Positions 11,819 through 40,601 of a stretch of DNA of 64,000 nt are shown piece after piece (positions within the stretch are counted from its first letter, which is position 1; each line of letters starts with the position of its first letter). The notes below the pieces were generated by a model. It saw only the letters and a program-made list of their open reading frames with translations. It searched no databases and had not been told where the DNA came from. A program made the position numbers and the translations under genes. The stretch comes from a bacterium (GTDB lineage Bacteria > Armatimonadota > UBA5829), in NCBI GenBank assembly GCA_021371935.1, contig JAJFVF010000022.1, positions 220,419-284,418 of the forward strand, written 5' to 3'.

Positions 11819-11892
11819 AACCCGGACTATGCGCATACCACATAATCCGGGTCTTTGAGAGCATTATTCACGTTCCTCGTGAATGATGCGGA
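11819..11892 (+). repeat. Double-hairpin intergenic repeat element, copy 1
   Basis: ACCCGGACTATGCG…CATAATCCGGG hairpin, then GTCTTTGAGA, then GCATTATTCACG…CGTGAATGATGC hairpin. About 85% identical to the copies at 14069, 33237 and 40529. Confidence 0.8.
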
Positions 11893-11972
11893 CTAAAGCG
11901 ATCGTTATACAAGTAAAAAACCTGGGGACAGCTATATGCAGACAGTAGCTTTTTTAGTGGCTCAGCAGTACA

Positions 11973-12422
11973 TCAAATTACTTCCAGCTTTTCAAGCATC
12001 TCGACGGCAAACTTATCTGCCTTCGTCTGCTTATAACGGCCGTTGCGTCCTTCGATGTGATCCAGATAGTGGGAGAATTCATGTAGAAAAATTGCGAGTG
12101 TGAGGTCTTCGGCATTATGAAACTGCTCTACACGCAGCTTCTGATATACCTGAGTCCGGCCCAGCCTATCCGTCTTCTCTACATACTCGGAGGTCTTGAA
12201 CTGAATTTTCATAGGATAATGGTTAAATCGATTGATCCTAAGACGTATCAGCCTGCCATGCTCGCGGCTCGGAGTCTTTCGATAATAAGTGCCGGATATA
12301 TAGCGGTTCGATCCTTTTGGGCAGTATTTGAGTTCCACCAGCAGACCATCTGTGGGATAGTCCGTAACCGCTTCCTTGAGAGCTGTGGATATATGCAGGT
12401 GCGTGTTATTAGCGATAATCAT
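11973..12422 (-). CDS. Small HExxH zincin-like protein (SprT/DUF45-like metal-binding motif), function unknown
   Basis: LHEFSHYLDHIEG (HExxH with downstream D/H/E). Overlaps the next gene by 4 nt. Confidence 0.35.
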   Translation of the reverse strand: MIIANNTHLHISTALKEAVTDYPTDGLLVELKYCPKGSNRYISGTYYRKTPSREHGRLIRLRINRFNHYPMKIQFKTSEYVEKTDRLGRTQVYQKLRVEQFHNAEDLTLAIFLHEFSHYLDHIEGRNGRYKQTKADKFAVEMLEKLEVI

Positions 12423-13711
12423 ACAGGCGGGAAACCCCTCCGGCCTGAAGAGTATAGCCTGTTCGTAAGATATGCGCCTATGAACGCCGTTATGAACACG
12501 CCAAAAAATGACCAGAGCATGGTTGGCTCATATTGGAGCTTGATAAATACTCCCGACGACACCTTTATACTGCCTGCACGGACCATCGACCGCCAGGCAA
12601 GTGTGCAGACAAACATGGTGATGCCGAGATATGCGGCATGGATTATCCCAATGCGCAAAGCTGTGGGCAGTGAACCATCCCGTGACCCCCAACGCACCGC
12701 CAAGGCACCCGAGATAAGCCCAATTATGGCCATCAGTCCGGCTCCTATATATGCTATGCTGCCGAATGGTATTACTTTTTCTTCTGCTTTCTTGTTCGCA
12801 GCAAGTTCGTTTTCATCTGAGGTTGTCGTTGCAGTGCGCAGTCGCAAGCCTTTATATAAATTAATTTCGGCTGCAAAGGGGCTCCTATCACCAGACACGA
12901 TTGCTGCGCGCAGCATGGCTCCATTGATAAGGCCATATGCTATGCCTGCGACAGTCGGCTGAAATTTGACTATCGCTCTGCCTGCTGGACCCTCAGGGTT
13001 TTCGGGACCCGTCTTTGAGATAAGCCAGGCCTGTGCGGCAATTGCAATTAAAAGCTGCAAGACAAGCATGATCGGTATTATGGATTTTCCGCAGACCCAC
13101 CAACGACTGACATGATGCCTTCTGTCAACTTTATGGATTGATAAATGACTGCCGATGTATGTGAAGATTACGCTGAACAGACCTGCAGCAAGCAATGTGC
13201 TTTTGAATGTCGGATGTAGAGGGAAACGTGGTGGGTCAAACTCATATCCGCCCGCTGAAGGCAGAGCGCCGGACTTGATCGACGCAGCAAAAAAACTGGA
13301 AAGCGCAGCCAGAACAAGCGCATATAGTATGCCTCCGATCACAGCCGGAGCAATTACACCAAAGCCTGTCGAACCCGCTCTCAGTCTGCCTGCTGCGTAA
13401 CCGGATACAAAAAGCGCCGCAATGGGGATGATTGCCCATGTGATTATCGGCAAGACTACATCAGCCGAAACCTTTGCGCCACCAAGAGTGCCACTGCCTT
13501 TAAGGGATGCATGTTGGATGGCACACAAATTCAGCCCTGCACGGGCAAACGCCGGGCCGCCATAATCCATTACATCGCCCGGAGAAGTGACATTAGCCAC
13601 ACCTGCCCTCAACAGGAAGAAGCATAAACCATAACCTATAGCCAATGCAACCACAGCCCCATATAGGGCCGCAATGATTGGGTTTACGGGTCTACTATCC
13701 ATCAATCTCAC
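12419..13711 (-). CDS. Polytopic integral membrane protein of unknown function (about 10 predicted TM segments)
   Basis: Many hydrophobic helices; no recognisable catalytic motifs. Co-operonic with the HExxH protein. Confidence 0.5.
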   Translation of the reverse strand: MRLMDSRPVNPIIAALYGAVVALAIGYGLCFFLLRAGVANVTSPGDVMDYGGPAFARAGLNLCAIQHASLKGSGTLGGAKVSADVVLPIITWAIIPIAALFVSGYAAGRLRAGSTGFGVIAPAVIGGILYALVLAALSSFFAASIKSGALPSAGGYEFDPPRFPLHPTFKSTLLAAGLFSVIFTYIGSHLSIHKVDRRHHVSRWWVCGKSIIPIMLVLQLLIAIAAQAWLISKTGPENPEGPAGRAIVKFQPTVAGIAYGLINGAMLRAAIVSGDRSPFAAEINLYKGLRLRTATTTSDENELAANKKAEEKVIPFGSIAYIGAGLMAIIGLISGALAVRWGSRDGSLPTALRIGIIHAAYLGITMFVCTLAWRSMVRAGSIKVSSGVFIKLQYEPTMLWSFFGVFITAFIGAYLTNRLYSSGRRGFPPV

Positions 13712-14000
13712 CGCCTGGTCTTTCTGCCCCGTACCGCACCCCAGGTTTTCAGCATCCTGCCCAAAACCATTATAGGATAATCCTCTTTAGGGTGCCCCCG
13801 GTCATGACTTAGTTGTCAAGAGACAAACATCCTTCATGAATTGTAAAACAGGCTTTCTGCAAGAAGCTCGCCGTTCCAACACATCATCATCGTCGGACTT
13901 AACCGGAAGACGCCGGGGCAAGAATGCCCCTCACAAGTGCTCCCGGGCTAAGAGTCCCCCGGATGATCAGGAAAAAGCAAATTACTCGCATTTATTATGC

Positions 14001-14030
14001 AAAAAACAGCCCCGGAAAAACCAGGGCTGT
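14001..14030 (-). terminator. Rho-independent terminator downstream of ABC ATPase gene and repeat copy 2
   Basis: ACAGCCCTGG-TTTTT-CCGGGGCTGT stem followed by TTTTTTG on the minus strand. Confidence 0.55.
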
Positions 14031-14068
14031 CTATCAAACCATCATACTATCTGACTATCACACTGTTA

Positions 14069-14143
14069 ACCTGGATTATGCGCCTCCCGAATAATCCGGG
14101 TCTCCAAGAGCATTATTCACGTTTTTCGTGAATAATGCGGGTT
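14069..14143 (+). repeat. Double-hairpin intergenic repeat element, copy 2 (abuts ABC ATPase stop codon)
   Basis: AACCTGGATTATGCGCCTCCCGAATAATCCGGGTCTCCAAGAGCATTATTCACGTTTTTCGTGAATAATGCGGG. Confidence 0.8.
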
Positions 14144-15239
14144 AGTAAATCGCCTTCTCAGTCCCTTTTTCAAACATATGCGTTTTGGCCATGTCGAAGA
14201 CGAGTTCGATATCCGAGCCTTCTTTTGCCTTGGTCTCGGCATCGATTGTGGCTTGCATCGCATGTGTTCCACACTGCAGATACAATGTCACGGTAGAACC
14301 CATCGGCTCGATCACCTCGACATCAGCTTTCACAACGTTGTCTGATGTCGCCTGGACGAGATTGGTCAGGTTTTTATCAAAAATGTCCTCGGGTCGGATG
14401 CCGAAATCGACCTCCTTGCCCACATATGCTTTCAACAGTTCGGCCTTATCCGCCGGCGGCTTGACTTTGAAACAGCCGCCATCGATCACGCCGCCATCTT
14501 CGATCTTGACCGAAAGGAAGTTCATGGACGGAGTGCCGATAAAGCCCGCTACGAACTTGTTTGCCGGTTTGTTATACAGCCCGAGTGGAGTATCCACCTG
14601 CTGCACCAACCCGCCACACATAACCATAATCCTGTCGCCCATTGTCATGGCCTCGACCTGGTCGTGTGTTACGTAAATTGTTGTGATACCCAGACTGCGG
14701 TGGAGCTTGATAAGGTCGGCACGGGTCTGAACGCGGAGTTTGGCGTCCAGGTTTGAAAGAGGTTCGTCCATAAGGAATACGGACGGCTCACGGACAATAG
14801 CTCTACCCAGCGCGACACGCTGTCTCTGGCCGCCCGAGAGCTGCTTCGGCTTCCTGTTGAGCAGATCAGTAAGCCCGAGCATCTCGGCAGCATCCGCCAC
14901 ACGGGTCTTTATATGTTCACGCGGGACCTTGCGCAGCTTCAACCCAAATGCCATGTTGTCAAAGACACTCATGTGAGGGTAGAGAGCATAGTTCTGAAAG
15001 ACCATTGCGATGTCGCGGTCTTTTGGTGATACGTCATTAACCACCCTGTCGCCGATAACCACTTCACCGGAAGTGATCTCTTCCAGACCGGCGATCATTC
15101 GCAGGCAGGTCGTCTTGCCACAGCCCGAAGGTCCTACGAAAACCATAAACTCTTTGTCTTTGATTTCGAGGTCCACATCATTGACAGCAGTGACTTCTTT
15201 GAAAGACTTGGTAAGATTCTTGAGGATGACTTGCGCCAT
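14142..15239 (-). CDS. Sugar ABC transporter ATP-binding protein (MalK/MsmK/UgpC type), orphan (no adjacent permease)
   Basis: Walker [10 protein letters not shown], signature LSGGQRQR, Walker [13 protein letters not shown]-terminal TOBE-like domain. Start chosen at MAQVIL (15239) after a strong GGAGGAA SD; the ORF track starts 18 nt earlier. Confidence 0.85.
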
Positions 15240-15437
15240 GTTAGAGGTTTCCTCCATCTTTGCTTCGGGCTTGTCCCCATTTTGCCGAAGCGGCTAAGTT
15301 AATTATTTCCCCGGGACAGGGGGCGGCATATGGACTGCCGCAGCCATATACAGATTATATGATGAGCAGCAAGGCCTGTCAAACAAAAAGACGTGATTAT
15401 ATCATCGTGCAACTTCTGATAGTTGATCGCTTAACAA

Positions 15438-15466
15438 TTGACTACCGAGCACTCAGCCCGTAATAT
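15438..15466 (+). promoter_or_regulatory. Putative sigma-70-type promoter for the yjbQ-like gene
   Basis: TTGACT – 17 bp – TAATAT. Confidence 0.35.
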
Positions 15467-15490
15467 GATATCATCACACACTTGGAGCGT

Positions 15491-15907
15491 ATGATGACGA
15501 CACACACGAAATATCTATGGTTCAATACGGATAAAAGGCGCGAACTGGTCAACATCACCGATCAGTGTCAGAATGCTCTGGAAGAAAGCGGCATTCAAGA
15601 AGGGATGATGCTGGTATCAGCCATGCATATCACCGCCGGGGTTTGGGTCAATGACAACGAACCCGGAATCTGGCAGGACGCAATGGACATGCTCGAAAGG
15701 CTCGCACCCGAAGGTCCAGATTATCGACATCACCGCACGGGTGAGGATAACGGCCATGCCCACCTCAAGAATCTGCTAATGCACCATCAGGTCATAATCC
15801 CGATAACCGACGGCAGGTTGGACCTGGGGCCATGGCAGACTATATTCTACGCCGAGTTCGACGGCCAGCGCAGAAAAAGAGTGATTATCAAGGTGATGGG
15901 AGAATAG
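15491..15907 (+). CDS. YjbQ/UPF0047-family protein
   Basis: [12 protein letters not shown]…HL… pattern of UPF0047. The ORF track starts at a TTG at 15482; the ATG at 15491 or 15494 is more likely. Confidence 0.7.
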
Positions 15908-16040
15908 AAAACAACTCGGTGTTGCGAGAGCAAGCAAGGCTCGGCGAGAGCCTCGCCCTCCCGCTATGCCGTTATTGATATGGACCAGTTCCAACTGAGT
16001 CGAAACCCAATCGGATTACCGAACACTACTGCGAACAACA

Positions 16041-17705: not shown

Positions 17706-17730
17706 ACTTATTTCTAACTCAAATCCTTTT

Positions 17731-18117: not shown

Positions 18118-18146
18118 TCCCTACTTCCTACTTCCTACTTCCTACT
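18118..18146. repeat. Tandem heptanucleotide repeat (CCTACTT)x4 between asd and the YciI-like gene
   Basis: ccctacttcctacttcctacttcctacttcac read directly. Confidence 0.8.
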
Positions 18147-19161
18147 TCACATATCCCCGCTCGATAGCCATCTCGGCAATCTGGACAGCGTTCAATGCGG
18201 CACCCTTGCGGATGTTATCGGCAACTACCCACAAATCCAGAGTGTTCGGGTTGCAAGTATCCTGGCGGATGCGGCCTACGTAGGTCGGGTCCGTGCCCTC
18301 AGCAAACAAAGGCATAGGGAAACGGCCTGCCGCAGGGTCATCGATCACTTCTATACCCGGCCAATCGGCAAGAGCCTTGCGCGCCTGATCAGCCGTAATA
18401 GGATTCTCGAACTCGACGTTGATCGTCTCAGAATGTGCCCGAAATACAGGCACACGCACACATGTAGCGGAAACTGCAAGTTCGTCTATACCGAAAATCT
18501 TGCGGGTCTCTTTTATCATCTTTATCTCTTCGCCGAAATAGCCGTCGAACTCACCTCTAAGAGTGCTGATCTGCGGGATCAGGTTCGCAAATATCTGAGC
18601 CGGGTAGACATCGTGAGTAATCTGTTTGCCTTCGGCATAATCCCTGGCCTGCTGCTCAAGCTCTTTGATTGCAGAGCTGCCACTGCCTGAGACGGACTGA
18701 TATGTCGAGACGACTATCCTCTTCATCTTGGCAATCTTATGCAGTGGTGCAAGGGCATGAACCATCTGAATAGTGCTGCAGTTCGGGTTTGAGACAAAAC
18801 CTTGATGTTTCGCCAGAGCGTCCGGGTTGACCTCCGGCACCACCAGCGGTACGCGCGGGTCCATACGGAAATCATCGCCATTATCGACCACGAATGCACC
18901 CTTTTCGACCGCCAGCCAGCCAAAGACCTGGCTCGCGCCCTTTGCACCTTCCGTGCCGGCAAAAAACGCTATGTCGATCCCATCGAATGCATCCGCTGTG
19001 GTCTCCTTGACCTGATACTCATCACCATCGATCATTTGTTTACGTGATGACCTGGCGAGAATAACAAGGTCCGACATCGGGAAACTGCGACCACGCAGCA
19101 CTTTGACCATTTCTTCGCCGACGGCACCAGCGCCGACGACTGCAACTCTGTAATCTGACAC
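18142..19161 (-). CDS. asd: Aspartate-semialdehyde dehydrogenase
   Basis: VAVVGAGAVG Rossmann motif, active-site region SNPNCSTIQMV, length 339 aa. Confidence 0.9.
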   Translation of the reverse strand: MSDYRVAVVGAGAVGEEMVKVLRGRSFPMSDLVILARSSRKQMIDGDEYQVKETTADAFDGIDIAFFAGTEGAKGASQVFGWLAVEKGAFVVDNGDDFRMDPRVPLVVPEVNPDALAKHQGFVSNPNCSTIQMVHALAPLHKIAKMKRIVVSTYQSVSGSGSSAIKELEQQARDYAEGKQITHDVYPAQIFANLIPQISTLRGEFDGYFGEEIKMIKETRKIFGIDELAVSATCVRVPVFRAHSETINVEFENPITADQARKALADWPGIEVIDDPAAGRFPMPLFAEGTDPTYVGRIRQDTCNPNTLDLWVVADNIRKGAALNAVQIAEMAIERGYVK

Positions 19162-19177
19162 TTCCTTAGATTTCCTC

Positions 19178-21247: not shown

Positions 21248-21431
21248 GATTTACCTTTCATCGCCAATATGGCCAAAATGCCACCGAATGCCCCACGCTC
21301 GACAACGCAGGTAACACTCCCGGTGGCATCATAGTCTAAAAGTCTGAAAGTTCGAAAGTCAAAAAGCTAAGCACATATATCACGTTCACCCCAACTTTTT
21401 GACTTTTCGACTTTATAACCTTTTGACTGAC

Positions 21432-26970: not shown

Positions 26971-27450
26971 TTGACCGAAATTTTCACGATAGGCCACAGC
27001 AATCATGACCTGCTCGATTTCTTGAATATATTGAAGCGCAGCAGGACCCAGGTCCTCGTCGATGTCCGCAGCGAACCCTACAGCCGCTATGCCTCACAGT
27101 TCAACAAAACCGAATTCCAAAGGCATGTCGAGACGGCTGGGATTACATATCGATACTCAGGCAACTCAATAGGCGGCAAACCCAAAGATATGTCGCTCTA
27201 CACCCCATCCGGCGCTCCCGATTATGACAAACTCGCAAAGACCGAATCTTTTCAAAATGAGCTTAAAGCAATCGTAGAAATCGCAAAGACCAAGCGAGTG
27301 GTTATAATGTGCAGTGAGGCAGACCCGATGACATGCCACCGCGAGAGAATTCTGGCACAAATTCTGCGAAGCTGGGGGATAGATGTGAAGCATATCATGC
27401 CGGATGGCAGCATCGCGAAGGTGGAACAACCAGGGCTCTTTAAGAATTAG
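26971..27450 (+). CDS. DUF488-family protein
   Basis: TIGHSNH motif at the N-terminus, about 160 aa. Confidence 0.6.
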   Translation: MTEIFTIGHSNHDLLDFLNILKRSRTQVLVDVRSEPYSRYASQFNKTEFQRHVETAGITYRYSGNSIGGKPKDMSLYTPSGAPDYDKLAKTESFQNELKAIVEIAKTKRVVIMCSEADPMTCHRERILAQILRSWGIDVKHIMPDGSIAKVEQPGLFKN

Positions 27451-27494
27451 TATTTTACATTTTGTATTTTATATTTGGCTGGATGCGTCAGGCA

Positions 27495-29135
27495 TCATCC
27501 GACAATGCAGGAAAGCAGAGACTGCAGTCTCTCGCTCTCACAAATTGGCTCCTTTGTGTCGTGATCCACAGCTTCAAGCGCTCCACCAATTACTCGCGTT
27601 TCGAGCGTGCCGCTAGCATACGGATTGCCTTTGAGATGAGGCGCATCCAAAAGACCCTGTTTGATAGCTCCGGTGATTACAGCCGGATCTGAGAAAGCAT
27701 CCTCCTCATCTCTACCGAAGTCACGGATTGCGCCCAGCAGGACTTCAGCTTCATCCATAAGGTATTTCCTGCGCCTGCCGACCTCTTCACTGCCTATCAA
27801 AGCCTGCATACCGGTCTGGCAATTCTTGAGCACGCCATGGACTATCTCGCAGCTTTCTATCACATCGTCAGCCGAGGCCGCATGGTCGCCCTCGCAGTAA
27901 CCAACCACATGAATGATATGCGGCGCAACCGCCAGAGAAAGCATAGTCGATGCCGCAAGCTGCCCCTTTGCCTTGTTCATCTGAGGTGACAGGTGCAGCA
28001 GCCCGGCTCTGACCTGTCTGAAAGAATAGAACTCAGGCCCGTGCAGACTCTCCACCATTTCTATCTGGGCCTGAACCTTTGCCAGGTCCATCACAGGCGA
28101 AAGACCAGGAGGGGTATTGAACATATACTGAGCAATGTAATGCGACACGCCCATCTGCTTCGCATTGTATGCCGCCAGATAGGCCATAACAACCGATATG
28201 ACATCGTGGGCATCGCGCAAGCCCCAATGGTGGGGCTCATTGACCTCCACTGGAATTCCACGCTCGGCATGCCAGCGCATACACTCCTGGTTCTCACGGA
28301 TTGCCCCCTCCGGCGTGCGATTCGAGCGTCCGTCCAAGACGCTGTACCAGCACAATGGTATCGCCGCCCAGGCATTTGATATAGTCTCCGCCGACATTTT
28401 TGCCCAGGATATAAGGTCGCGAGTGCCGCTGTATACACGCAGCAGGGGATAGTTTCCACACTGCGCAGCGCTATACATCGCGGTCAGATCTTCGCGTCTG
28501 CGAACTGGAACGCCGCCTGCGCCGTCCATAGTCGGGTCCATCTCCTCCGGGCGGAAGAATGACTCCTGCGCGTTCTGGTCCGGTGCAATCGAAATTATAT
28601 CGAGCACACCGGACTCGGCGATTTTGCGAACACCGTTTATAGTCGCGTCAAGGTCGGGCAGACCGAAATGATGCCTAAGCAGCGGGTATGGGTGCTTGTG
28701 TTCGAGCCGCTCGAGCAGCGTGCCGGTGCATTCAGTGCAGGATTTACCCGCTTCCTCGCCTTTCAGATATGTCCACACGGCATCAGTGTTCTCAAGCCCG
28801 GTGAAATAATACTCGAACCAATCCAGTTCCTTGACCGCTTCGCACACGGGAGGCGTTCCACCGAAGACAAACCGCCTGTCAAGCAGTTCCGAGCGCTCCA
28901 GAGCCGACTTGAGATCACTGACCAGGCGCTTACCGACTTCAGGGGTCAATCGATAGCTGACACCGACTATATCGGGATCATGCTCGCGGACTGCTTCGAC
29001 AAAATCATCTACGCTAACTGCCGCGCCCAAGAATACTGTCTTGTAACCAAGCTGCTGTGCGATGCCCAATAGCCCGGCCACACCCGCCACATGCACGCAG
29101 TTTCCCAGTGCTCCGGCAACTATAGTTCCGCGCAT
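27495..29135 (-). CDS. B12-binding-like domain fused to a large C-terminal TIM-barrel-like domain, possibly glutamate/methylaspartate-mutase (E-subunit)-like
   Basis: N-terminal Rossmann-like B12-binding fold pattern (TIVAGALGNCVHVAGVAGLLG…DIVGVSYRLT), but a non-canonical NCVHVAG where DxHxxG is expected. The C-terminal 400 aa have no recognisable motif; the mutase-E resemblance is by eye only. Confidence 0.3.
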   Translation of the reverse strand: MRGTIVAGALGNCVHVAGVAGLLGIAQQLGYKTVFLGAAVSVDDFVEAVREHDPDIVGVSYRLTPEVGKRLVSDLKSALERSELLDRRFVFGGTPPVCEAVKELDWFEYYFTGLENTDAVWTYLKGEEAGKSCTECTGTLLERLEHKHPYPLLRHHFGLPDLDATINGVRKIAESGVLDIISIAPDQNAQESFFRPEEMDPTMDGAGGVPVRRREDLTAMYSAAQCGNYPLLRVYSGTRDLISWAKMSAETISNAWAAIPLCWYSVLDGRSNRTPEGAIRENQECMRWHAERGIPVEVNEPHHWGLRDAHDVISVVMAYLAAYNAKQMGVSHYIAQYMFNTPPGLSPVMDLAKVQAQIEMVESLHGPEFYSFRQVRAGLLHLSPQMNKAKGQLAASTMLSLAVAPHIIHVVGYCEGDHAASADDVIESCEIVHGVLKNCQTGMQALIGSEEVGRRRKYLMDEAEVLLGAIRDFGRDEEDAFSDPAVITGAIKQGLLDAPHLKGNPYASGTLETRVIGGALEAVDHDTKEPICESERLQSLLSCIVG

Positions 29136-30301
29136 TGTTTCGTCTCCTTTTCTTCAGGCTCGCCCTCCAGAATAAACCGGCGTATGTCTTTCAGGCTTTT
29201 TCCCGCCAGACCGAGGCTCTCGGCGTTCCTGCCTTTTGCCCTGTAGTCCGTCTCATGCAAAATCGAGCCGAGCAGGATGATCGAGTCTATAACCGGTGTC
29301 GGCACGCCTACCATCTCTCCCAGAGACGCTATAGGCACAAGGCTCATCGGGATATCCTCGCTTATATAACGATGATATACACTCTTGGGAGCCTTGATGC
29401 CATCATAACCTCTGTTGGCCCGCATCGCCTCATGCAAAGTGCGCCCTGCGGCGTCATAGGCAATATAGAGCCACTCGCGCGCGGACATTGCCCTGAAACC
29501 GAGAGCCTCGGCTACGGCAACACGCTCCTTATCCATCTTTTCGAGAATCTGAGATACAGCGGGAGTGATGCCTTCCGTATAATAATCGAAATCGCCGTTT
29601 GTGCTTTCGATGCGAGCGGCGTTGAGGACAGTGACCGCCGGGTGGAATATCGCGCCGATATTGTCGAGGCTGGTCTTCATCACATTATCGCCGGGCACAA
29701 ACTGAGGAAACGCGGTCCTAAGCTTGCCTACCACCTCGGGTGTGCTATGTGCAGGCAGAGCTGCTACGGGGATGCTGTTCTTGACGCGGAATATCTTGGT
29801 CTGCGCCGGATTCATCGACCGGCTGGCGTATATGAATGTCTGCGCCTCGGCTACGACCACATCAGCGCAGCACCCACAGTCACGTATGACTTTGGACACC
29901 TCCAATGCACCGCCCGTCCTGCCGGGATTGAGCACTATCATCTGGCCGTCGACAAGGTGAGGAGCGATCTGTTCGGCAATTGGCCTGTGCGCGGTTGCAG
30001 GGACCACGACCATTAGAATATCGCGTCCGGCGATGGCCTCGGATGGGATGGAGGTAACAATTTTGAGAGCAGCGAAGCCGTGAGGAATTGTGTCCTGGCA
30101 GCCGGATATGATCTCTATCCCACCTGCAGACTGGATCGAACGGAGCCTTTCCGGACTGCGGTTATATAGTGAGACATCAAAGCCCATCAGAGAAAGCTGC
30201 CCTGCCACGGCTGTTCCACCATGGCCTGCTCCGAGGACTGCGAAACTGGGCGCACTCCTGTTTTCCATTATATGTCCTCCATTTATGTACAAGACACCCA
30301 A
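29120..30301 (-). CDS. Opine (octopine/nopaline-type) dehydrogenase-family NAD(P)H oxidoreductase
   Basis: FAVLGAGHGGTAVAGQL, IVLNPGRTGGALE, LNAARIES…DYYTEGITP, VPTPVIDSI, GRNAESLGLAG track bacterial opine dehydrogenases. A 16-nt overlap with the upstream gene implies an operon. Confidence 0.7.
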   Translation of the reverse strand: MGVLYINGGHIMENRSAPSFAVLGAGHGGTAVAGQLSLMGFDVSLYNRSPERLRSIQSAGGIEIISGCQDTIPHGFAALKIVTSIPSEAIAGRDILMVVVPATAHRPIAEQIAPHLVDGQMIVLNPGRTGGALEVSKVIRDCGCCADVVVAEAQTFIYASRSMNPAQTKIFRVKNSIPVAALPAHSTPEVVGKLRTAFPQFVPGDNVMKTSLDNIGAIFHPAVTVLNAARIESTNGDFDYYTEGITPAVSQILEKMDKERVAVAEALGFRAMSAREWLYIAYDAAGRTLHEAMRANRGYDGIKAPKSVYHRYISEDIPMSLVPIASLGEMVGVPTPVIDSIILLGSILHETDYRAKGRNAESLGLAGKSLKDIRRFILEGEPEEKETKQCAEL

Positions 30302-30627
30302 CGGCAGCGAAACAGGAATGCTCTCTGCTTATCTTCCTGCCGCGCCTGCGAGGTTAGCTGTCGGGCTGGGGTCGGAAGCATGACCCCTCTCCATAACGAA
30401 GATTAGCCCCGTAAATCGGTTCCCCCGTTTTCGCACGATTGCGAAATTCGGCGTCCAAATTATAGACATGTATATGCTTAGTATTCTAGACGCTCTTCAT
30501 CGAGTTTTAGTTCCAATTTTCTGCGTATATCAAAATCAAAATCGAGCTTGTTCGCAATATAAAAACCTGGTATAATTACCAGGTTGGGGAAAGAATATCC
30601 CCTCTCCTTTCTATCTCCTTTAAACTT

Positions 30628-32707: not shown

Positions 32708-33199
32708 TTAAATCGATCGCAGCTTTTCAGAATGAGCATGGCAGACCGCCAGAGCCAGAGCATCGGCTGCATCGTCCGGCTTGGGTATCTCGCGAAGACT
32801 CAGGATTCTTTGGATCATGAACTGAATCTGCTTCTTTTCGGCGCCGCCATAGCCGACCACCGCCTGCTTGACCTCCATCGGGGTATATTCAACCACGGTC
32901 AGCCCTCGCTGGGCGGCAGCAAACTGCATCACACCGCACGCCTTGCCGACTGCAATCGCCGTAGTCTGGTTCTTGGCGAAAAACAGTCTCTCCATCACGA
33001 TTACATCGGGTTGATATTGGTCGATGATCTTGTTGAGTTCGTTATAGATATCCAAAAGACGCTCGGGGGCGGATTTCTTTGGGCTGGTCTCTATTGCGCC
33101 GTAGTCGACCATCTTCGGACTCACACCTATTTTGTCCACTACGCCATATCCCGTCGTGGCTGTTCCGGGGTCTATTCCTAATATTCGCAAGGTCTGCAT
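32708..33199 (-). CDS. ruvC: Crossover junction endodeoxyribonuclease RuvC
   Basis: ILGIDPGTATTGYGV, DVIVMERLF, DDAADALALAVCHA catalytic-residue pattern. Confidence 0.9.
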   Translation of the reverse strand: MQTLRILGIDPGTATTGYGVVDKIGVSPKMVDYGAIETSPKKSAPERLLDIYNELNKIIDQYQPDVIVMERLFFAKNQTTAIAVGKACGVMQFAAAQRGLTVVEYTPMEVKQAVVGYGGAEKKQIQFMIQRILSLREIPKPDDAADALALAVCHAHSEKLRSI

Positions 33200-33236
33200 G
33201 AGTGCATTCTACAGGCGAATTTGTTCCCGGTCAACT

Positions 33237-33310
33237 AACCCGGATTATGCGCTTTCCGCATAATCCGGGTCTCCGAGAGCATTATTCATGTTTCTCGTGA
33301 ATAATGCGGG
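33237..33310 (+). repeat. Double-hairpin intergenic repeat element, copy 3 (in ruvC 5' region)
   Basis: AACCCGGATTATGCGCTTTCCGCATAATCCGGGTCTCCGAGAGCATTATTCATGTTTCTCGTGAATAATGCGGG; the first stem is 14 bp and perfect. Confidence 0.8.
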
Positions 33311-33504
33311 CTAAATCTATAATAAATCGACGCCGAGCAGCCATAATACTAATGAACTACACAAAGATACGTCCAAAGTCCCATTTACACCTGGTAAAAA
33401 ACTGGGGATAATCCTAGTGTAGTACGAACATAGCTCATACATAAGTTTTAAGCATTGAGCCTAAACTAAAGATTGAAAAAGTAAATATATCAGGAGATCG
33501 GACC

Positions 33505-33604: not shown

Positions 33605-34210
33605 ATGAGAGCAGCACAGATGCGACCGGCAAAAGCCGTCACCACACAGGACGGACAGTTGATAGGCAGCTTCAAACGGGGGCAGGCCGAGGCCTTTGAC
33701 CGTTTGATGGAGGCGCACACCGACAAGGTGTTTGCGCTGGCATGGTCGGTCCTGATGAATGCTGATGATGCCATGGATGCGGTCCAGGAGGTCTTCATTA
33801 AGCTGTATAAAGCACTGCCATCGATGTCCGAATCCGATAATTTGAACGCGTGGCTCTATCGGGTCTGCCTTAATCACTGCATCGACCGCAAACGCAGAGC
33901 TAAAAACTCGAGGACAGAATTTACTGACGATGACTGGGAGCATCTGCAAGGCAACTTGGCCGATGAGCCTGAATATCGTATGTATCAGAGTGAAGTGGGG
34001 CGGGTAATACGCGCCGCGGTGGACAAGCTGCCCGAGCGCCAGAGAATGGTATTCATTCTCAGGCACTACAGACTTCTTTCTATAAATGAGATCGCGCAGG
34101 CACTAGGATGCACCACCGGCGCGGTCAAGGCGCATCTTTCGCGCGCAACCGCTCGTTTGCGCGACCGGCTTGCAGGGACAATTGTCTTTGAAGCCGGGGA
34201 GGTGAAATAA
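33605..34210 (+). CDS. ECF-subfamily RNA polymerase sigma factor
   Basis: Sigma70_r2 (…VQEVFIKLYKA…WLYRVCLNHCIDRKR) and r4 (…LSINEIAQALGCTTGAVKAHLSRA). An alternative start lies at 33620. Confidence 0.85.
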   Translation: MRAAQMRPAKAVTTQDGQLIGSFKRGQAEAFDRLMEAHTDKVFALAWSVLMNADDAMDAVQEVFIKLYKALPSMSESDNLNAWLYRVCLNHCIDRKRRAKNSRTEFTDDDWEHLQGNLADEPEYRMYQSEVGRVIRAAVDKLPERQRMVFILRHYRLLSINEIAQALGCTTGAVKAHLSRATARLRDRLAGTIVFEAGEVK

Positions 34211-34211
34211 A

Positions 34212-34931
34212 ATGAATTGCAGACAGGTCCGTAAACTTATGGGAGCATATCTGTATGGAGACCTGGAACCGGAAGATATGCGCGATATCAGGCTGCATGC
34301 GCAGGTATGTGATAAATGCCGTGCCGACCTGGAAAGCCGCGGGCAGGTCATCTCATCGCTGAGCGCTCAAGCGCCGGTTCTGCAAGATCACGACAAGCAG
34401 CGGATCGCTCGGAATGTGAAAGAAGCAATAACCGGGTTGGATCACGAAGATATCAGACTGAACCGCACGAATGAGCCGGACACAGGCCTATGGTGGCTGC
34501 GACCGGCATCGGCTGTCGCTATAGCAGGTTTTCTGCTGGCAGGTTTTGCAATAGGCAGGCACATCGGCGGTGGGCTTTCTGCAGGCTCCAGGCAGTCAAC
34601 CGACATCAGCAAAGCAAGGGTAACAATCACCGAGGCAGCCCCAGACAACTCATCTGATAATGCAACAGAAGCCAGCACCGATACGCACCAAAGCAACTCA
34701 CGCTCGAAAAAGATAGAAAATATGGCCGATTATGCTCGAAGGATGGCAATACCCGCAGTCACCGGCCCGACAGACAGAAACAGCAATCAAGATAAGCGCA
34801 GGCACGTAATACATGAGGAGCCGCTGAGTGTGGCAGGACAATCGGACATAAAGGGAGAACAGGACAATAAAGACACGACAAAACTGCCAAAACCCACAGG
34901 TCTTAATGATGCGCAGACAGCCAATGAATAA
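34212..34931 (+). CDS. Anti-sigma factor with N-terminal zf-HC2-like motif and single TM helix
   Basis: HAQVCDKCRADL Cys/His cluster, TM segment AVAIAGFLLAGFAIG. Lies immediately after the ECF sigma with a 1-nt gap. Confidence 0.6.
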   Translation: MNCRQVRKLMGAYLYGDLEPEDMRDIRLHAQVCDKCRADLESRGQVISSLSAQAPVLQDHDKQRIARNVKEAITGLDHEDIRLNRTNEPDTGLWWLRPASAVAIAGFLLAGFAIGRHIGGGLSAGSRQSTDISKARVTITEAAPDNSSDNATEASTDTHQSNSRSKKIENMADYARRMAIPAVTGPTDRNSNQDKRRHVIHEEPLSVAGQSDIKGEQDNKDTTKLPKPTGLNDAQTANE

Positions 34932-35982: not shown

Positions 35983-36019
35983 ATTCGCATTTTGACACGT
36001 TTTCTGCGATAATGTACGC

Positions 36020-39000
36020 ATGCTGGAATCTATTATTTCATCAATGATCCCTGTCGTCGGCGCAGACGGCAGTTCCCGCAGACCTCGGCGTTCCCGCCGG
36101 CAGCGGCCACCCCATGAAGATATGGGCAACTGGATATGGATACAAAGCGCCGAGACCACTCGTAATTATTATCTCTACGCGCGCAAAACATTCGACCTAC
36201 CCGCAAAGCCCAGCCGAGCAATCATCAAAACATCTGCAGACAGCCGTTATAAGCTCTATGTGAACGGCGAATACGTCGGCAAGGGACCCGTGCGAAGCGC
36301 AGCGGGCATCAGTTATTACGACACGTATGATATCACAGGAGTGCTTTCCAAAGGCAAAAATGTCATCGCGTTCCATGTCATGCATTTCGGTGAGAACACG
36401 TCAATGTGCGCGCTTCGCAGACCAGGCCTGATCTGTAAAGCGGAAATAGAGCTAAATGACCAAAAGCTGGAAATAGAAACCGATCAGGCATGGAAAGTGC
36501 ATCGCGCATCCGATTGGACCGGCCAGAGCGCTCGCATCAATAACAACCTCGGTTTCCAGGAAGTCTATGACAGCGCGGAGCGTATGGACGGTTGGAATGA
36601 GATCAAGTTTAAAGAAAAAGGCTGGGAAGAGGCCTGCATAGTGGGCACAGCGCCTGCAATGCCATGGGGCAAACTCATTGAGCGCGCTATTCCACAGCTC
36701 GATGAAGAGAAAATCCTGCCCGCTTCAATAGTCGGATTATATAACTCGCCTGAGCACAGTAAGGAGACCGCTGCGCAGACGGTGCCTGAGATCATGGCGG
36801 CATCCGAGCTTGTCGATCTCAACGCCGGCAGCGTCAAGCATGCTGAAGCACTGCTGACAGAGACCGGAAGCTGCCAGGTCAAGACTCCCCGCGGCGATGG
36901 AGGAGTCGTGATTATACTCGATTTCGGTCGAGAAGTGTTCGGCAATGTAGAGATAGGCATCGGCGGCTCGGGCAGCGGAACTATGGATATCGGCTATAGT
37001 GAACTGCTCGAAGACGGCCATGTGAAACCCACTCGCGGCGATATGAAATACACCGACCGCGTGGTCCTCAAAAAGGGAAAACTTAACTGGCAGAGCTTCG
37101 AGCCGCGCGCATTCAGGTATATGCAGATCGAGTTTCATGCGTGCTCCAAGGCGGTCGCGCTGGAACATATCAGAGTCAACCAGACCACCTACCCCACCGA
37201 GCTTATCGGCAGTTTCGAGTGCAGTGACCCGCTCCTAAACGACATCTGGAAGACCTGCGCATACACTGCAAAACTGTGCATGGAAGACACGTTCATCGAC
37301 TCGCCATGGCAGAGCAGATCGCAGTGGTGGGCGGACGCCAGAATCGAATCGCGAACGGCATATTATGCATTCGACGACGTCAAGCTGCTGGCTCAGGGTC
37401 TCAGGCAGATTGCCGATACTCAGGATCGCAGCGGCGCGGTCATGGGCACATATCCCGCATCGGAGGATAAACTGGTCCCGGACTTTGCGCTTAATTGGGT
37501 CTTTTCGATCCTTGATTACTATGCATTCTCGGATGATTCGGGTTTGGTGCGCGATCTGTATCCCAACGTGCGCAGGCTGATGAGTTGGTTCGATCGATAT
37601 CAGAACGATTTTGGACTAATCGGCGAAGTGCCCGGATGGATATTCATCGACTCGGCTGATCTGGAACGGCATGGTGTGCTGACATCCCTCAACTGCCTGT
37701 ACTATCAAGCTCTGAGGGTGACGGCTGCCCTTGCATCAATTTTGGGAAAAGGCAATGAAGCGGATGACTATAACGAGTCCGCCCGAGTGCTCAGACTTGC
37801 GATCAACAAATATCTCTACTCGCCCGAGAAAGGGCTGTATGCGGACTGCCTGAAAGACGGCAAACTGGCGGACAAATTCAGCGCTCAGACAAACATACTC
37901 GCCGCGCTCTTCGATATCCCCGACCATTATTGCAAGGCCGCTATCATACGCACTCTGCAGGGCAACATGCTCTCTGAAACCAGGACACCGTATTTCACAT
38001 CGCACTTGCTCGAAGTGCTATACTCGATGGATCGCCATAAAGAGGCTCTCGATATGATGCGCCGGAAGTGGGGAAGGAGCGTAGAGCAAGGCGGTGGAAC
38101 GTTCCCTGAGTTCTTCGGTGATAACGGCAGCAAGTGTCATGGCTGGGCATCGGGTCCAGCGCGCGATCTCATCGCCGAATATGTCGGGATAAAGCCCATA
38201 CTGGGCATGCATCGATTTTCTGTCACCCCGCATGAAGGCGACCTTGAATGGGCAAAAGGGTCCATTGCAACCCGGACCGGGCTGTTGACCATCGAATGGC
38301 GTTCCACACCCAGGTCGTTCACTATAGAAGCGCGGGTTCCAGACGGTCTGAAAGTTGACATATACCCACCCTGCCCTATGAACACAAAGATAACGCTCGA
38401 CGGCAAGGCGCATCCGTCATGCCTGGTTACCATTGGCGGCGGCAATCACACCATAAAAGTGACATCGGCCAGGCTTCCAAAGCCAAAACCGCTGGGCAAA
38501 CTGCCGAAACCTGTCCCGATACCGATCGTGGAACTGCTCGATGATCTGTCGGTGCAAGATCGCAAAAATCTCGGATTGATAACCAGCCGCCATGAAAGAA
38601 ACGGCTCCAGGCGGTCACGCCTGAAGACTTCCCGCAAGTCGAAAATCGAAGAGGCGCCAATCGAAATACTCCCTACTCCTGAACTGGAAACACTGGTCGA
38701 AGAGACGGAGATGATACCGGAAATCGCCGCATCGGCAACTGAAACCGCTCCCGAGGCCGAGACAAAGCCCCAGAAGAGACGGTCCCGCCGTGGTGGACGC
38801 GGCAGGAACAAGCCTGCACCGCAAGAGACGGCCGTCGCTCAAGTGCCTGAGGAAAAAGTCGAAGTTGAAGCTGTAATCAGCAATGAGCCGCTTGAAACGG
38901 CAGATGAGCCGAAAAAGACGAGCAGGAAGCGTTCACATCGCGGAGGCAGACGAAGGTCTTCCAAGTCATCACAAGAGGCACAAACGCCTGCTGATGTGCC

Positions 39001-39346
39001 GACAGAGATCGAACCCGCCGCTGAGTCTCCATTGTCGGTTGAAGACGCATCGCCTGAGCTGGTTACTGAAGCAGCAGTCGAAGCAGCACCCAAACCCGCC
39101 AGAAAACGCACTCATCGGGGTGGAAGAAAACGCTCTACATCCAAAAAGTCTTTGGAAGAAGCTGCCGAGAGCAGCCCAATAGAGCCGGTCGTCGAAGCCA
39201 CACCTGAACCTGCTCCAGAGGCTGCAGCCCAGGAAGCACCTAAGAAAAAACGGCGCACATACACCAGGCGACCAAGGAAAAAACCAACTGAAAACACTGA
39301 GCAGGCTGACAGTTCTAAAACCATGCAGGATCAGCCTGCCGAGTAG
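36020..39346 (+). CDS. GH78 (alpha-L-rhamnosidase)-like six-hairpin glycosidase fused to a ~270-aa acidic/arginine-rich C-terminal tail with three R-x-HRGGR-like repeats
   Basis: N-terminal YARKTFDLPAKPSRAIIKTSADSRYKLYVNGEYVGKGP (Bac_rhamnosid_N pattern); FECSDPLLNDIW…FIDSPWQSRSQWWAD catalytic-domain pattern. Tail motifs RRSRRGGRGRNK, RKRSHRGGRRRSSK, RKRTHRGGRKRSTSKK, KKKRRTYTRRPRKK. The true start may be Met-35 (36122). Confidence 0.5.
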   Translation: MLESIISSMIPVVGADGSSRRPRRSRRQRPPHEDMGNWIWIQSAETTRNYYLYARKTFDLPAKPSRAIIKTSADSRYKLYVNGEYVGKGPVRSAAGISYYDTYDITGVLSKGKNVIAFHVMHFGENTSMCALRRPGLICKAEIELNDQKLEIETDQAWKVHRASDWTGQSARINNNLGFQEVYDSAERMDGWNEIKFKEKGWEEACIVGTAPAMPWGKLIERAIPQLDEEKILPASIVGLYNSPEHSKETAAQTVPEIMAASELVDLNAGSVKHAEALLTETGSCQVKTPRGDGGVVIILDFGREVFGNVEIGIGGSGSGTMDIGYSELLEDGHVKPTRGDMKYTDRVVLKKGKLNWQSFEPRAFRYMQIEFHACSKAVALEHIRVNQTTYPTELIGSFECSDPLLNDIWKTCAYTAKLCMEDTFIDSPWQSRSQWWADARIESRTAYYAFDDVKLLAQGLRQIADTQDRSGAVMGTYPASEDKLVPDFALNWVFSILDYYAFSDDSGLVRDLYPNVRRLMSWFDRYQNDFGLIGEVPGWIFIDSADLERHGVLTSLNCLYYQALRVTAALASILGKGNEADDYNESARVLRLAINKYLYSPEKGLYADCLKDGKLADKFSAQTNILAALFDIPDHYCKAAIIRTLQGNMLSETRTPYFTSHLLEVLYSMDRHKEALDMMRRKWGRSVEQGGGTFPEFFGDNGSKCHGWASGPARDLIAEYVGIKPILGMHRFSVTPHEGDLEWAKGSIATRTGLLTIEWRSTPRSFTIEARVPDGLKVDIYPPCPMNTKITLDGKAHPSCLVTIGGGNHTIKVTSARLPKPKPLGKLPKPVPIPIVELLDDLSVQDRKNLGLITSRHERNGSRRSRLKTSRKSKIEEAPIEILPTPELETLVEETEMIPEIAASATETAPEAETKPQKRRSRRGGRGRNKPAPQETAVAQVPEEKVEVEAVISNEPLETADEPKKTSRKRSHRGGRRRSSKSSQEAQTPADVPTEIEPAAESPLSVEDASPELVTEAAVEAAPKPARKRTHRGGRKRSTSKKSLEEAAESSPIEPVVEATPEPAPEAAAQEAPKKKRRTYTRRPRKKPTENTEQADSSKTMQDQPAE

Positions 39347-39355
39347 TCACATTAA

Positions 39356-39383
39356 TGGGGCGCTACTCCAACGTTGCGCCCCA
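39356..39383. terminator. GC hairpin between convergent genes (terminator-like)
   Basis: TGGGGCGC-N12-GCGCCCCA. Confidence 0.35.
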
Positions 39384-39390
39384 ATTATAA

Positions 39391-40284
39391 TCAGCTCTTT
39401 CTGGCCCAAAATGTGGTTCGCTCCAGTGAATCCTCATACGGGGCATCATCTCTATCTCCGAAGTGCTTCTCTACTACGAAACCATGCTTTTCAAGCCACT
39501 CGCGCACTTCGTATGTGCTTATTGGATGTTTCTGTTGAACGGTCTCCTTGGTTGTAATGGTTCCATCCGGGCTGGTCACAATAACCCAGCGCTTTGCTCG
39601 CCACAGCCGTTTGGGAGCATCGAACCAAATTGTTTCGCTCTCCCATTCAAACCGAATGCCGTCTGCGCTGGTCCAACTGCCTATTATTCCCGAATGACGC
39701 CCGGGCTGCCTCCAGGACTCAGCAAGTTCGCATTCCATATGGTCGCTGTCATAATAGAGATATCCGCCCGGCTTAAGCGCACGAGCGGCTGAGGCTATGC
39801 AGCCCTCCTGCTCCTCCGGCGTGGCAAGCTCATAAAAACAATTGCCGCCCAAAATCACCAGGTCGAAGGCCTGCGGCCAGACATACTCAGTGACATCTGC
39901 CTCGATAAACGACACCCTACCCAACACCTCCTGAGAGAGCGCCATTGCTTTGCGCCTGGCTCGATCCATAAGAGCCTTTGATTTGTCGATCCCGACCAGC
40001 TCATGGCCGTCCTGAGCAAGCGGGATCAGTATTCGACCCGTGCCGCAAAACGGCTCCAAAATCCTCATGTTCTTACGTGCACCGATCAATCGGCGAATCT
40101 GAACGACATCATCGATGTCGCGCTGAGTGAAATCATACCACTGAGCTATATGCGGATCCAGGTCATACCAGTTAACATCATTCTTACTCAAGTTTGCGTC
40201 TCCTTTGACTTTGTTCCGAATGCCTGGGCTATTCGGCGGAGCGCATTGTCGGACTTTGTTACCGAAGCTTCGCTCCATAAGCAA
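39391..40284 (-). CDS. Class I SAM-dependent methyltransferase
   Basis: Motif I ILEPFCGTGRILIPLA, acidic post-I residue, motif II DLVILGGN. Confidence 0.75.
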   Translation of the reverse strand: MLMERSFGNKVRQCAPPNSPGIRNKVKGDANLSKNDVNWYDLDPHIAQWYDFTQRDIDDVVQIRRLIGARKNMRILEPFCGTGRILIPLAQDGHELVGIDKSKALMDRARRKAMALSQEVLGRVSFIEADVTEYVWPQAFDLVILGGNCFYELATPEEQEGCIASAARALKPGGYLYYDSDHMECELAESWRQPGRHSGIIGSWTSADGIRFEWESETIWFDAPKRLWRAKRWVIVTSPDGTITTKETVQQKHPISTYEVREWLEKHGFVVEKHFGDRDDAPYEDSLERTTFWARKS

Positions 40285-40528
40285 GTAATAATGTGTACGT
40301 CATATCAAGTGCCTCCTTTCTCTAAGCAATTTACGGTCAGTAAATTGCACGATTGCATGTAGTTTTACTGTTATGAAAAACTATAGTGGTATGCAAGCGA
40401 CCAACCGTGATTTACTTAGGGCATTGCGCCCTCCAACTATATAGAATGAAAGTCCCACATGGATAAACCACCGCCGAAGGGAAAATGGCAGCCGAGCGTG
40501 AAGATACCTGTACGTATATGGGTATATA

Positions 40529-40601
40529 CCCGCATTATTCACGAAGAACGTGAATAATGCTCTCGGAGACCCGGATTATGCGCTTCCCGCATAATCCGGG
40601 T
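40529..40601 (-). repeat. Double-hairpin intergenic repeat element, copy 4 (inverted orientation), flanked by GGGTATATACCC palindrome
   Basis: The reverse complement matches the consensus of copies 1-3. A 12-bp perfect palindrome at 40520-40531 overlaps its end. Confidence 0.8.

Follow-up and report, generated by a model that had tools for sequence, protein, structure and literature searches.

The four dispersed intergenic repeats in the window (the whole stretch of Armatimonadota DNA analyzed here, 64,000 nucleotides in length) are, at a probability that we place near 0.85, copies of a 72-bp non-autonomous, non-coding transposon (MITE). A preliminary description had recognized a dispersed intergenic repeat family of MITE type, and this view is borne out by terminal inverted repeats, flanking target-site duplications and empty sites in relatives. 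The element is a new example of well-known selfish DNA and not a new kind of system.

The 72-bp element and its paired hairpins

All four previously described repeats were found where they had been placed, and a check of the window ORFs confirmed that every copy is intergenic. The repeat itself had been given an extent of ∼75 bp; the element proper is 72 bp (CCCGG...GCGGG), and the leading "A" and trailing bases that had been included are part of the 4-bp flanking duplications. A 31-nt core, searched with up to 3 mismatches, matched exactly the 4 sites against an expectation of 0 (100 shuffles), while the end motifs had no further occurrence in the window and a profile search recovered no weaker copies there. 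The 78.4 kb of the source genome that was covered (the window and 14.4 kb of flanks) holds 4 copies, all within 29 kb, with the following features:

11817 to 11820, + strand: left target-site duplication of copy 1, CTAA
11821 to 11892, + strand: MITE copy 1, 72 bp, the most diverged copy, with 3' terminus GCGGA
11893 to 11896, + strand: right target-site duplication of copy 1, CTAA
14066 to 14069, + strand: left target-site duplication of copy 2, TTAA, with 1 mismatch to the right side
14070 to 14141, + strand: MITE copy 2, 72 bp
14142 to 14145, + strand: right target-site duplication of copy 2, TTAG
33235 to 33238, + strand: left target-site duplication of copy 3, CTAA
33239 to 33310, + strand: MITE copy 3, 72 bp, hairpin 1 perfect
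33311 to 33314, + strand: right target-site duplication of copy 3, CTAA
40525 to 40528, - strand: target-site duplication of copy 4 on the element 3' side, TATA on the - strand
40529 to 40600, - strand: MITE copy 4, 72 bp, inverted, hairpins 1 and 2 perfect, hairpin-1 loop flipped
40601 to 40604, - strand: target-site duplication of copy 4 on the element 5' side, TATA on the - strand

We searched metagenome contigs with a pattern for hairpin 1 only, which returned 17 contigs, and 14 further full copies from this search lie on 14 JGI metagenome contigs. The probability that the family reflects chance similarity or an assembly artefact is negligible given that no chance matches are expected, that 20.5 kb containing copies 3 and 4 is also present in the public MAG record GCA_039683595.1, and that the element occurs in independent JGI metagenomes. 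A short-read contig from the same sample (L059) breaks inside copy 4, but this shows just that the repeat is difficult to assemble.

On both strands, every copy forms two separate hairpins (-32 to -43 kcal/mol, z = -5.3 to -9.4) with stems of 12 to 13 bp, and the double-hairpin consensus given earlier was correct. Imperfect terminal inverted repeats are present on every window copy (CCCGGATTAT.C / CCCGCATTAT.C), the element ends being CCCGGATTATGCG at the 5' side and CCCGCATTATTCACG as the reverse complement of the 3' end. Comparison of the 5' CCCGGATTATGC with the reverse-complemented 3' end, CCCGCATTATTC, shows identity at 10 of 12 positions, and these termini are kept in 18 copies. Moving inward from either end, a spacer of 5 nt separates the terminal repeat from an inverted copy of itself, which makes each end a 12- to 13-bp palindrome, and the two palindromes are joined by a linker of ∼10 nt; no ORF is present in the 72 bp. 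This layout is unusual for a MITE, as the usual MITE ends pair with each other, and the separate palindrome per end superficially resembles the ends of IS200/IS605 elements.

Pairwise identity among the four window copies is 82 to 90% and increases to 88 to 94% once copy 4 is corrected for its inverted hairpin-1 loop, which reads GGAAG where the family has the reverse complement, CTTCC. The stems are near-invariant among the copies, and part of the loop difference noted earlier is this inverted loop and not substitution.

Target-site duplications and empty sites

The window copies are flanked by 4-bp target-site duplications (CTAA, TTAA/TTAG, CTAA, and TATA for copies 1 to 4), and we examined the same positions in all 18 full copies, comprising the 4 in the window and the 14 on JGI contigs. 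Identical 4-bp flanks, mostly CTAG, were found in 13 of the 18, with the remaining 5 lacking a perfect duplication (3 with a 1-nt difference and 2 unmatched). Five kinds of flank occur (CTAG, CTAA, TTAG, TATA, and CAGG), and the left and right sides change together from copy to copy, with CTAA/CTAA present three times alongside TTAG/TTAG, TATA/TATA, and CAGG/CAGG. Shuffling of the right flanks gave a mean of 3.9 matches and reached 13 in 0 of 100,000 shuffles. Of the 13 perfect duplications, 12 read CTAG, CTAA, or TTAG, with TATA and CAGG as the exceptions to a YTAR target. A TA duplication of the IS630/mariner type inside CTAG was rejected, since under it the outermost bases of the element would have to vary along with the flank, and the TATA or CAGG flanks could not be accommodated.

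At the positions of copies 2 and 4, related Armatimonadota contigs are uninterrupted and lack the element. Copy 2 adjoins the TAA stop codon of a minus-strand gene for a MalK/UgpC-like ATPase (14142-15257), with the stop (14142-14144) lying inside the right-hand duplication and the ATPase terminator kept downstream of the insertion, so that the copy sits between stop codon and terminator. The orthologous site reads "atttacTAAtcg" in one relative (L002) and "atttacTAGtcg" in another (L001), while the filled site in the window, in reverse complement, reads "atttacTAA[element]TTAAcag". A gap of 20 nt separates the end of copy 4 from the ribosome-binding site (GGAGG) of a gene for an M16 peptidase; at the site of this copy a UBA5829 relative (L005) has "ATGGGTATATAGTCGAG" and the window has "ATGGGTATATA[element]TATAAGTCGGG". 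Compared with these orthologous sites, the insertion at copies 2 and 4 is a discrete 76-bp addition, made up of the 72-bp element and a 4-bp duplication.

Synteny with the relatives is lost at the other two copies. Copy 1 lies between the stop of a 149-aa ORF (11973) and the start of a cysteine-protease gene (∼11700), bordering a segment of 2.1 kb and two genes that L001 and L002 lack. Copy 3 occupies the divergent region between ruvC (32708-33199, - strand) and an ECF sigma factor gene (33605-34210, + strand), directly upstream of a -35-like TTGACC for ruvC (33234-33229) that adjoins its duplication; the nearest relatives have Nramp beside ruvC and thus offer no orthologous intergenic region for comparison with this copy. 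We also considered a composite transposon in which copies 1 and 2 moved the intervening 2.2 kb, and rejected it: copies 1 and 2 are flanked by separate duplications (CTAA/CTAA and TTAA/TTAG), the outer flanks are mismatched (CTAA versus TTAG), and the two ORFs in between encode no transposase but an HExxH protein and a multi-pass membrane protein.

The flanks and empty sites also bear on a different origin, in which the repeats would be REP/BIME-like or IS200/IS605-derived (PATE-like) elements, the hairpins being what a Y1 tyrosine transposase (RAYT or TnpA) recognises and the element having moved as single-stranded DNA that inserted 3' of a specific tetranucleotide. The RAYT-mobilised REP/BIME/REPIN sequences are likewise short extragenic palindromes, sometimes paired with a variable linker, that occur in many copies and often after stop codons, and IS200/IS605-derived PATEs and Nezha-type MITEs have a hairpin at each end with a tetranucleotide beside each. 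Here too a separate hairpin stands at each end, similar to REP doublets and to the ends of IS200/IS605, and a tetranucleotide, usually CTAG, is found next to both; solo hairpin-1 units exist (L034/L050, L047), and a faint Y1_Tnp match was obtained for a 216-aa protein encoded in the genome of a relative (L054/L055), but no element copy is present in the 34 kb read from that genome. We consider this origin very unlikely. Y1 transposition proceeds without target duplication and with a right cleavage tetranucleotide fixed in the element (PATEs and Nezha-type MITEs insert 3' of a fixed tetranucleotide that is not duplicated), whereas the flanking tetranucleotide here is variable and the same on both sides of a copy, a co-variation that shuffling did not reproduce. 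REPs lack both target-site duplications and terminal inverted repeats, the latter also being absent from IS200/IS605 ends, PATEs, and Nezha-type MITEs, and this element has both. The conserved GTAG-type 5' tetranucleotide of REPs has no counterpart here. REPs are also linked to a Y1 transposase gene, and no Y1_Tnp domain was found in the window and its flanks (78 kb). The REP/BIME-RAYT alternative offered in the preliminary description thus does not hold, as variable, co-varying 4-bp duplications and clean empty sites are not made by IS200/RAYT-type transposition.

Conservation of the arms and the proposed mode of transposition

The near-invariance of the stems had been taken as a sign of selection on structure. 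A structured RNA or regulatory module selected by the host (an mRNA-stabilising double stem-loop, an attenuator/terminator, or a small RNA), spread or retained for its fold, would fit hairpins that are very stable on both strands, positions consistently near gene ends and 5' leaders, and arms far more conserved than the loops and linker. The last of these is evident in the arms of hairpin 2, which played no part in finding the JGI copies and are variable at 5 of 24 columns, in comparison to 20 of 20 for the linker and loops. A covariance check of 25 base pairs across 15 distinct copies, however, yielded 0 compensatory substitutions, with all stem changes one-sided, and does not sustain the claim of structural selection. 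The orientation of the element relative to neighboring genes is variable, promoter and terminator scans identified no T-tail terminator and no sigma-70-like promoter within it, and there was no Rfam match at the gathering score (at E ≤ 10, just sub-threshold microRNA-like hairpin noise). Relatives' orthologous genes are without the element, and the flanking duplications are a mark of insertion. Taken with these results, selection for an RNA fold is highly unlikely. Because the loops and linker vary freely and no compensatory change was observed, the arms are conserved at the level of sequence, not of an RNA fold, and are probably transposase binding sites.

We hypothesize that a DDE-type transposase would bind the conserved arms and mobilise the MITE by a cut-and-paste or copy-paste route, with 4-nt staggered target cuts and subsequent repair giving rise to the duplication. 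Its gene would lie in an autonomous IS at another place in the genome, and the enzyme, judging from the 4-bp YTAR target, is probably IS5-like. Copies would build up at stop codons or immediately past them, as well as in promoters and leaders, because YTAR contains TAA or TAG and because genic insertions would be selected against. Once inserted, the element is probably near-neutral passenger DNA, but if transcribed, its two stable stem-loops could alter the stability or translation of a neighboring mRNA, and copies 2 and 4 lie where such an effect might arise. The window copies diverge from each other by 5 to 18% and therefore do not demonstrate recent activity in this genome.

The element shares with the IS5 family and its derived MITEs short terminal inverted repeats, a bias toward non-coding DNA, and a 4-bp YTAR duplication (CTAG, CTAA, TTAG), IS5 itself making a 4-bp duplication at 5'-YTAR-3' (PMC5009759; PMC10379815). 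It differs in that each terminus is duplicated in inverted form to make its own hairpin, and in that no transposase or parent IS was found in the DNA read. As had been noted earlier, no window ORF contains a transposase domain, and the same is true of the flanking 14.4 kb. An autonomous IS or transposase with these ends was found neither in the window and flanks, nor beside the JGI copies, nor in 807 kb of collected loci, in plasmids, or in viral contigs. Since the termini (CCCGGATTAT...) are unlike the ends of E. coli IS5, it is the target motif alone that points to a family for the mobilising enzyme. Candidates also include further DDE families that make 4-bp duplications, such as IS1380 (the ends of which start with CC) and IS701.

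An unlikely alternative is that the repeats represent a minimal transposon of two palindromic modules served by an Armatimonadota-specific, undescribed transposase, or a double stem-loop co-opted by the hosts as a portable structure for mRNA ends or leaders. Hairpins 1 and 2 would in the two-module case resemble each other, and each would be able to flip or to occur alone; the transposase would recognise hairpin or cruciform ends and yet cut with a 4-bp stagger, a hybrid of the "hairpin-end" and "TIR+TSD" styles.

Distribution of the family and its significance

As a MITE family, the element extends beyond this genome. At least one JGI contig carrying a copy is also from Armatimonadota, and the family is present in higher-GC hosts (55 to 62% GC), where PGI is closest to Armatimonadota proteins. 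The linker-containing ATAATCCGGGTCTNNNAGAGCATTATTCA had 0 matches in genome contigs (185,579 species genomes) and the linker-containing CCGGGTCTNNNAGAGCATTATTC had 0 matches in JGI metagenome contigs; the linker, and hence the exact 40-nt core that had been proposed for counting copies, is by these searches specific to this lineage. Copies are absent from the close relative contigs L001, L002, and L005 and from one locus each of ∼30 other genomes, and no related sequence was detected in plasmid and viral collections. Such a patchy distribution is typical of mobile DNA.

Several of the metagenome contigs depart from the simple pattern. In L049, an insertion, tandem or nested, sits at the duplication that flanks a different copy. 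In one metagenome contig the element lengthens an ORF by 10 codons, and solo hairpin-1 units occur in L034/L050 and L047. We rejected the solo units of L047 and L050 as ends of a full-length IS, the inward ORFs being ordinary genes for a cupin, a UPP synthase, and an AsnC-like regulator. A second partial copy in L047 belongs to a different local repeat, and a 16-nt match in L018, without hairpin context, was attributed to chance.

Among bacterial repeats, the element is most readily compared to Correia/CREE of Neisseria, RUP of pneumococcus, ERIC, and the QMITEs of Coxiella, which are similarly small, non-coding, intergenic, and multi-copy (reviewed in PMC3184786 and PMC10969869). It shares with classical bacterial MITEs terminal inverted repeats with a target-site duplication, strong secondary structure, and presence or absence among relatives, and at 72 bp it falls at the small end of their size range. 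It differs in its own sequence and in its host phylum, in having two independent terminal hairpins in place of one long foldback, and in its 4-bp YTAR duplication, in comparison to the TA of Correia and RUP.

A search of the available literature found no paper covering both Armatimonadetes and MITEs, and the element appears to represent the first MITE family reported from Armatimonadota, a poorly studied and mostly uncultured phylum. The element opens no new mechanism and settles no long-standing question, but the family is an aid to annotation that explains short-read contig breaks and intergenic "hairpins". It also provides a marker of recent transposase activity and, given that the arms hardly differ between hosts with 51% and with ∼60% GC, possibly of horizontal exchange between Armatimonadota lineages. 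Finally, it offers a compact case in which the conservation of palindromes in repeats need not imply selection on RNA structure.

Four copies of a double-hairpin element

A sequence of ~75 nt can be read directly at four sites in the window, the last inverted, and a 31-nt core allowing ≤3 mismatches matched exactly these four sites, with 0 matches expected from 100 dinucleotide-preserving shuffles. The 72-bp elements and their flanking tetranucleotides (left/right) are as follows.

Copy 1: 11821-11892, plus strand, CTAA/CTAA
Copy 2: 14070-14141, plus strand, TTAA/TTAG
Copy 3: 33239-33310, plus strand, CTAA/CTAA
Copy 4: 40529-40600, minus strand, TATA/TATA

All four are intergenic, share 82-90% pairwise identity and on either strand form a pair of distinct hairpins, each with 12-14 base pairs (-32 to -43 kcal/mol; z of -5.3 to -9.4 versus shuffles), so that the preliminary description of the repeats, their consecutive hairpins and their placement between genes stands. 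End-motif, general repeat and profile searches of the window returned no further or partial copies.

The host DNA is armatimonadotal by its closest named homologues: those of the MalK/UgpC-like ATPase beside the element are 87% identical and labeled "MAG: Armatimonadota bacterium." A RuvC homologue at 99% identity pointed to NCBI assembly GCA_039683595.1, in which a segment of contig JBDKRD010000018.1 (313,153 bp) is 100% identical to window positions 22708-43190 (record position = window + 220404). Flanking DNA of the same organism, 9.86 kb on the upstream side and 4.55 kb on the downstream side, contains zero element copies. The 78.4 kb of the source genome covered by the window and its flanks thus holds four copies, all within 29 kb, and because of this clustering the earlier extrapolation to hundreds of copies genome-wide is weak. 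A Logan short-read contig with the M16 peptidase gene, assembled from the source sample (SRR15035646), begins inside hairpin 1 of copy 4 (contig positions 1-40, window 40572-40611); the 32-nt exact stretch common to copies 3 and 4 suffices to explain this end, and the element fragments short-read assemblies of the source organism.

The element reads CCCGGATTATGCG, a 5-nt loop, CGCATAATCCGGG, a linker of ~10 nt, GCATTATTCACG, a second 5-nt loop, CGTGAATAATGC and GGG. At its two ends the outermost 12 nt form inverted repeats (10/12 identical), and an inverted copy of each end lies next to it, an arrangement that produces the two hairpins, themselves similar (GGATTATGC versus GCATTATTC). Aligning 15 distinct copies shows almost no variation in the arms, in contrast to the loops and linker, where each of the 20 columns varies. 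The preliminary description had seen selection on structure in this pattern, a reading that pair counting over the same 15 copies leaves unsupported: 98.4% of cells are paired, yet no pair has changed on both sides and stem substitutions are one-sided without exception. What is conserved is the arm sequence itself, as would be expected for transposase binding sites or for descent from active masters. Three copies have one loop reverse-complemented relative to the rest of the family (hairpin 1 of copy 4 and of metagenome contig L048; hairpin 2 of metagenome contig L046). Perfect palindromes are able to flip their loops, and such a flip explains half of the 8 differences that separate copy 3 from copy 4. 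The element matches no known RNA family at gathering scores, with only hairpin noise at E ≤ 10, and signal scans found neither a T-tail terminator nor a sigma-70-like promoter inside the element.

Insertion sites and target-site duplications

Two copies can be compared with uninterrupted sites in relatives. Around copy 2, the flanking genes of two related Armatimonadota contigs, L001 and L002, share ~82-84% nucleotide identity with the window; the end of their ATPase gene reads "...atttacTAA tcg..." in L002 and "...atttacTAG tcg..." in L001, with a terminator ~35 nt past the gene end. The corresponding window sequence is "...atttacTAA [72 bp] TTAA cag...", after which come a similar spacer and the terminator. 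At the methyltransferase/M16-peptidase intergenic site of copy 4, the window reads "ATGGGTATATA [72 bp] TATAAGTCGGG" and the orthologous site of Armatimonadetes bacterium UBA5829 reads "ATGGGTATATAGTCGAG." Copies 2 and 4 are therefore clean 76-bp additions, comprising the 72-bp element and a 4-bp duplication.

Across 18 full copies (4 in the window and 14 in JGI metagenomes), identical tetranucleotides stand on both sides of 13 and 3 others are one base off; as listed, the matching tetranucleotides are CTAG (eight copies), CTAA (three), and TTAG, TATA and CAGG (one apiece). When right flanks were reassigned at random between copies, the mean was 3.9 matches and 0 of 100,000 trials reached 13. 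Since the tetranucleotide varies from copy to copy and agrees between the two sides of any one copy, it is a true target-site duplication lying outside the element. An IS630-style duplication of 2 bp (TA) inside CTAG is at odds with TTAG/TTAG, CTAA/CTAA, TATA and CAGG. The target consensus YTAR, duplicated over 4 bp, matches the one reported for IS5 (PMC5009759; PMC10379815). YTAR contains TAA or TAG, which fits the precise coincidence of several copies with stop codons, namely copy 2 and those in metagenome contigs L036, L038, L042 and L043.

The ORFs between copies 1 and 2 encode one membrane protein and one HExxH protein, and the two copies could be imagined as a composite transposon moving the intervening 2.2 kb as a unit; this is rejected because each copy has its own duplication. 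We note that the 2.1-kb segment at ~11897-14000, whose two ORFs lack Pfam hits (one of 149 aa with an HEFSH motif, the other for a multi-pass membrane protein of 430 aa), is missing in L001 and L002, where the ATPase terminator directly precedes the protease gene; copy 1 lies at one edge of this indel.

Related copies and other repeats

Patterns that include the linker matched nothing in 185,579 species-representative genomes or in JGI metagenomes. A pattern restricted to hairpin 1, which left the hairpin-2 arms outside the search, found 17 JGI contigs, 14 with the complete two-hairpin element and 3 with hairpin 1 alone. The complete elements have the same arms (5 of 24 columns vary in the hairpin-2 arms), other loops and a different linker (e.g., GGCATTCAGA versus TCTCCGAGA). 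The JGI contigs have a GC content of 55-62%, compared with 51% for the window. In contig L039, the PGI gene adjoining the element (2863-2934) is closest to Armatimonadota proteins; its stop is replaced (CAG versus TAG in the relative L056), and the frame (ORF 2906-4819, minus strand) runs 10 codons into the element, ending at a TAA inside hairpin 2. Contig L049 (342-449) carries a 5'-truncated copy (hairpin 2 only), then GTAG, then a complete copy, which is a tandem or nested insertion at the older copy's duplication site.

Other repeats occur in the window and in other contigs. Metagenome contig L047 carries a different repeat, GTTGTAGGAGCCGTCTC(G/C)AGACGGCGAT(T/C)TGCGAGCGTGA, at 3194-3260 and 5858-5960; it is itself palindromic, starts with GTAG (in that respect REP-like), and its two inverted occurrences adjoin solo or partial hairpin-1 units. 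Short arrays in which units of 7-8 nt repeat in tandem (e.g., GGTTTGAT/GGTTTGAGA, GTCAAAAA and CCTACTT) lie as follows.

Window: 7590-7693, 14031-14066, 18120-18148, 21333-21428, 27450-27476, 62290-62341
Other contigs: L001 484-600; L002 9579-9612; L056 11725-11830

These arrays start directly after stop codons and occur at orthologous positions in relatives with differing unit sequences. A period-7 AGAC array lies after PGI in a different Armatimonadota lineage. Several arrays are paired with an inverted version of themselves, as downstream of mgsA and pnp, and would fold into long imperfect hairpins. The arrays may act as terminators or 3'-end structures, or may bind proteins.

The window also encodes a c-di-AMP (ydaO-type) riboswitch (30328-30463, minus strand; 85.7 bits), which immediately precedes an octopine/nopaline-dehydrogenase-family gene (29120-30301); next comes the gene of a protein with a B12-binding domain (27495-29135). 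Another MAG (L029) retains part of the aptamer. A UBA5829 relative (GCA_002431715.1; L054 1491-2141, L055 1754-2404) encodes a 216-aa protein with a faint Y1_Tnp (PF01797) match, possibly a RAYT/IS200-like gene; the DNA read from this relative contains no double-hairpin element.

Proposed mobilization in trans

The preliminary description had offered REP/BIME or MITE-type elements. Target-site duplications, terminal inverted repeats and empty sites bear out the MITE part, but the duplications and terminal inverted repeats contradict a REP/RAYT or IS200/IS605 element. Small size, multiple copies and patchy distribution are further MITE features, and the double-hairpin element is most likely a MITE mobilized in trans by a DDE transposase. 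As described earlier, the window lacks a cognate transposase: DDE or Y1 domains occur in none of its ORFs, nor in its flanks or beside the JGI copies, and no parent IS was found in these places. We hypothesize that the transposase, whose DDE class we infer, would recognize the CCCGSATTAT..C arms and integrate the element at YTAR via 4-nt staggered cuts; the element's inner arms presumably have a role as well. The target motif, on which the assignment rests, suggests an IS5-like enzyme. IS1380- and IS701-type enzymes also make 4-bp duplications, and an enzyme of either type is a possible alternative to an IS5-like one.

A stop codon and a terminator flank copy 2, copy 3 adjoins a -35-like box and a ribosome-binding site follows copy 4 at a distance of 20 nt; judging from these positions, the three could possibly affect neighboring genes. 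The library searched yielded no paper mentioning Armatimonadota and MITEs together, and by that measure this new member of an otherwise familiar class of element is apparently the first MITE family described for the Armatimonadota.
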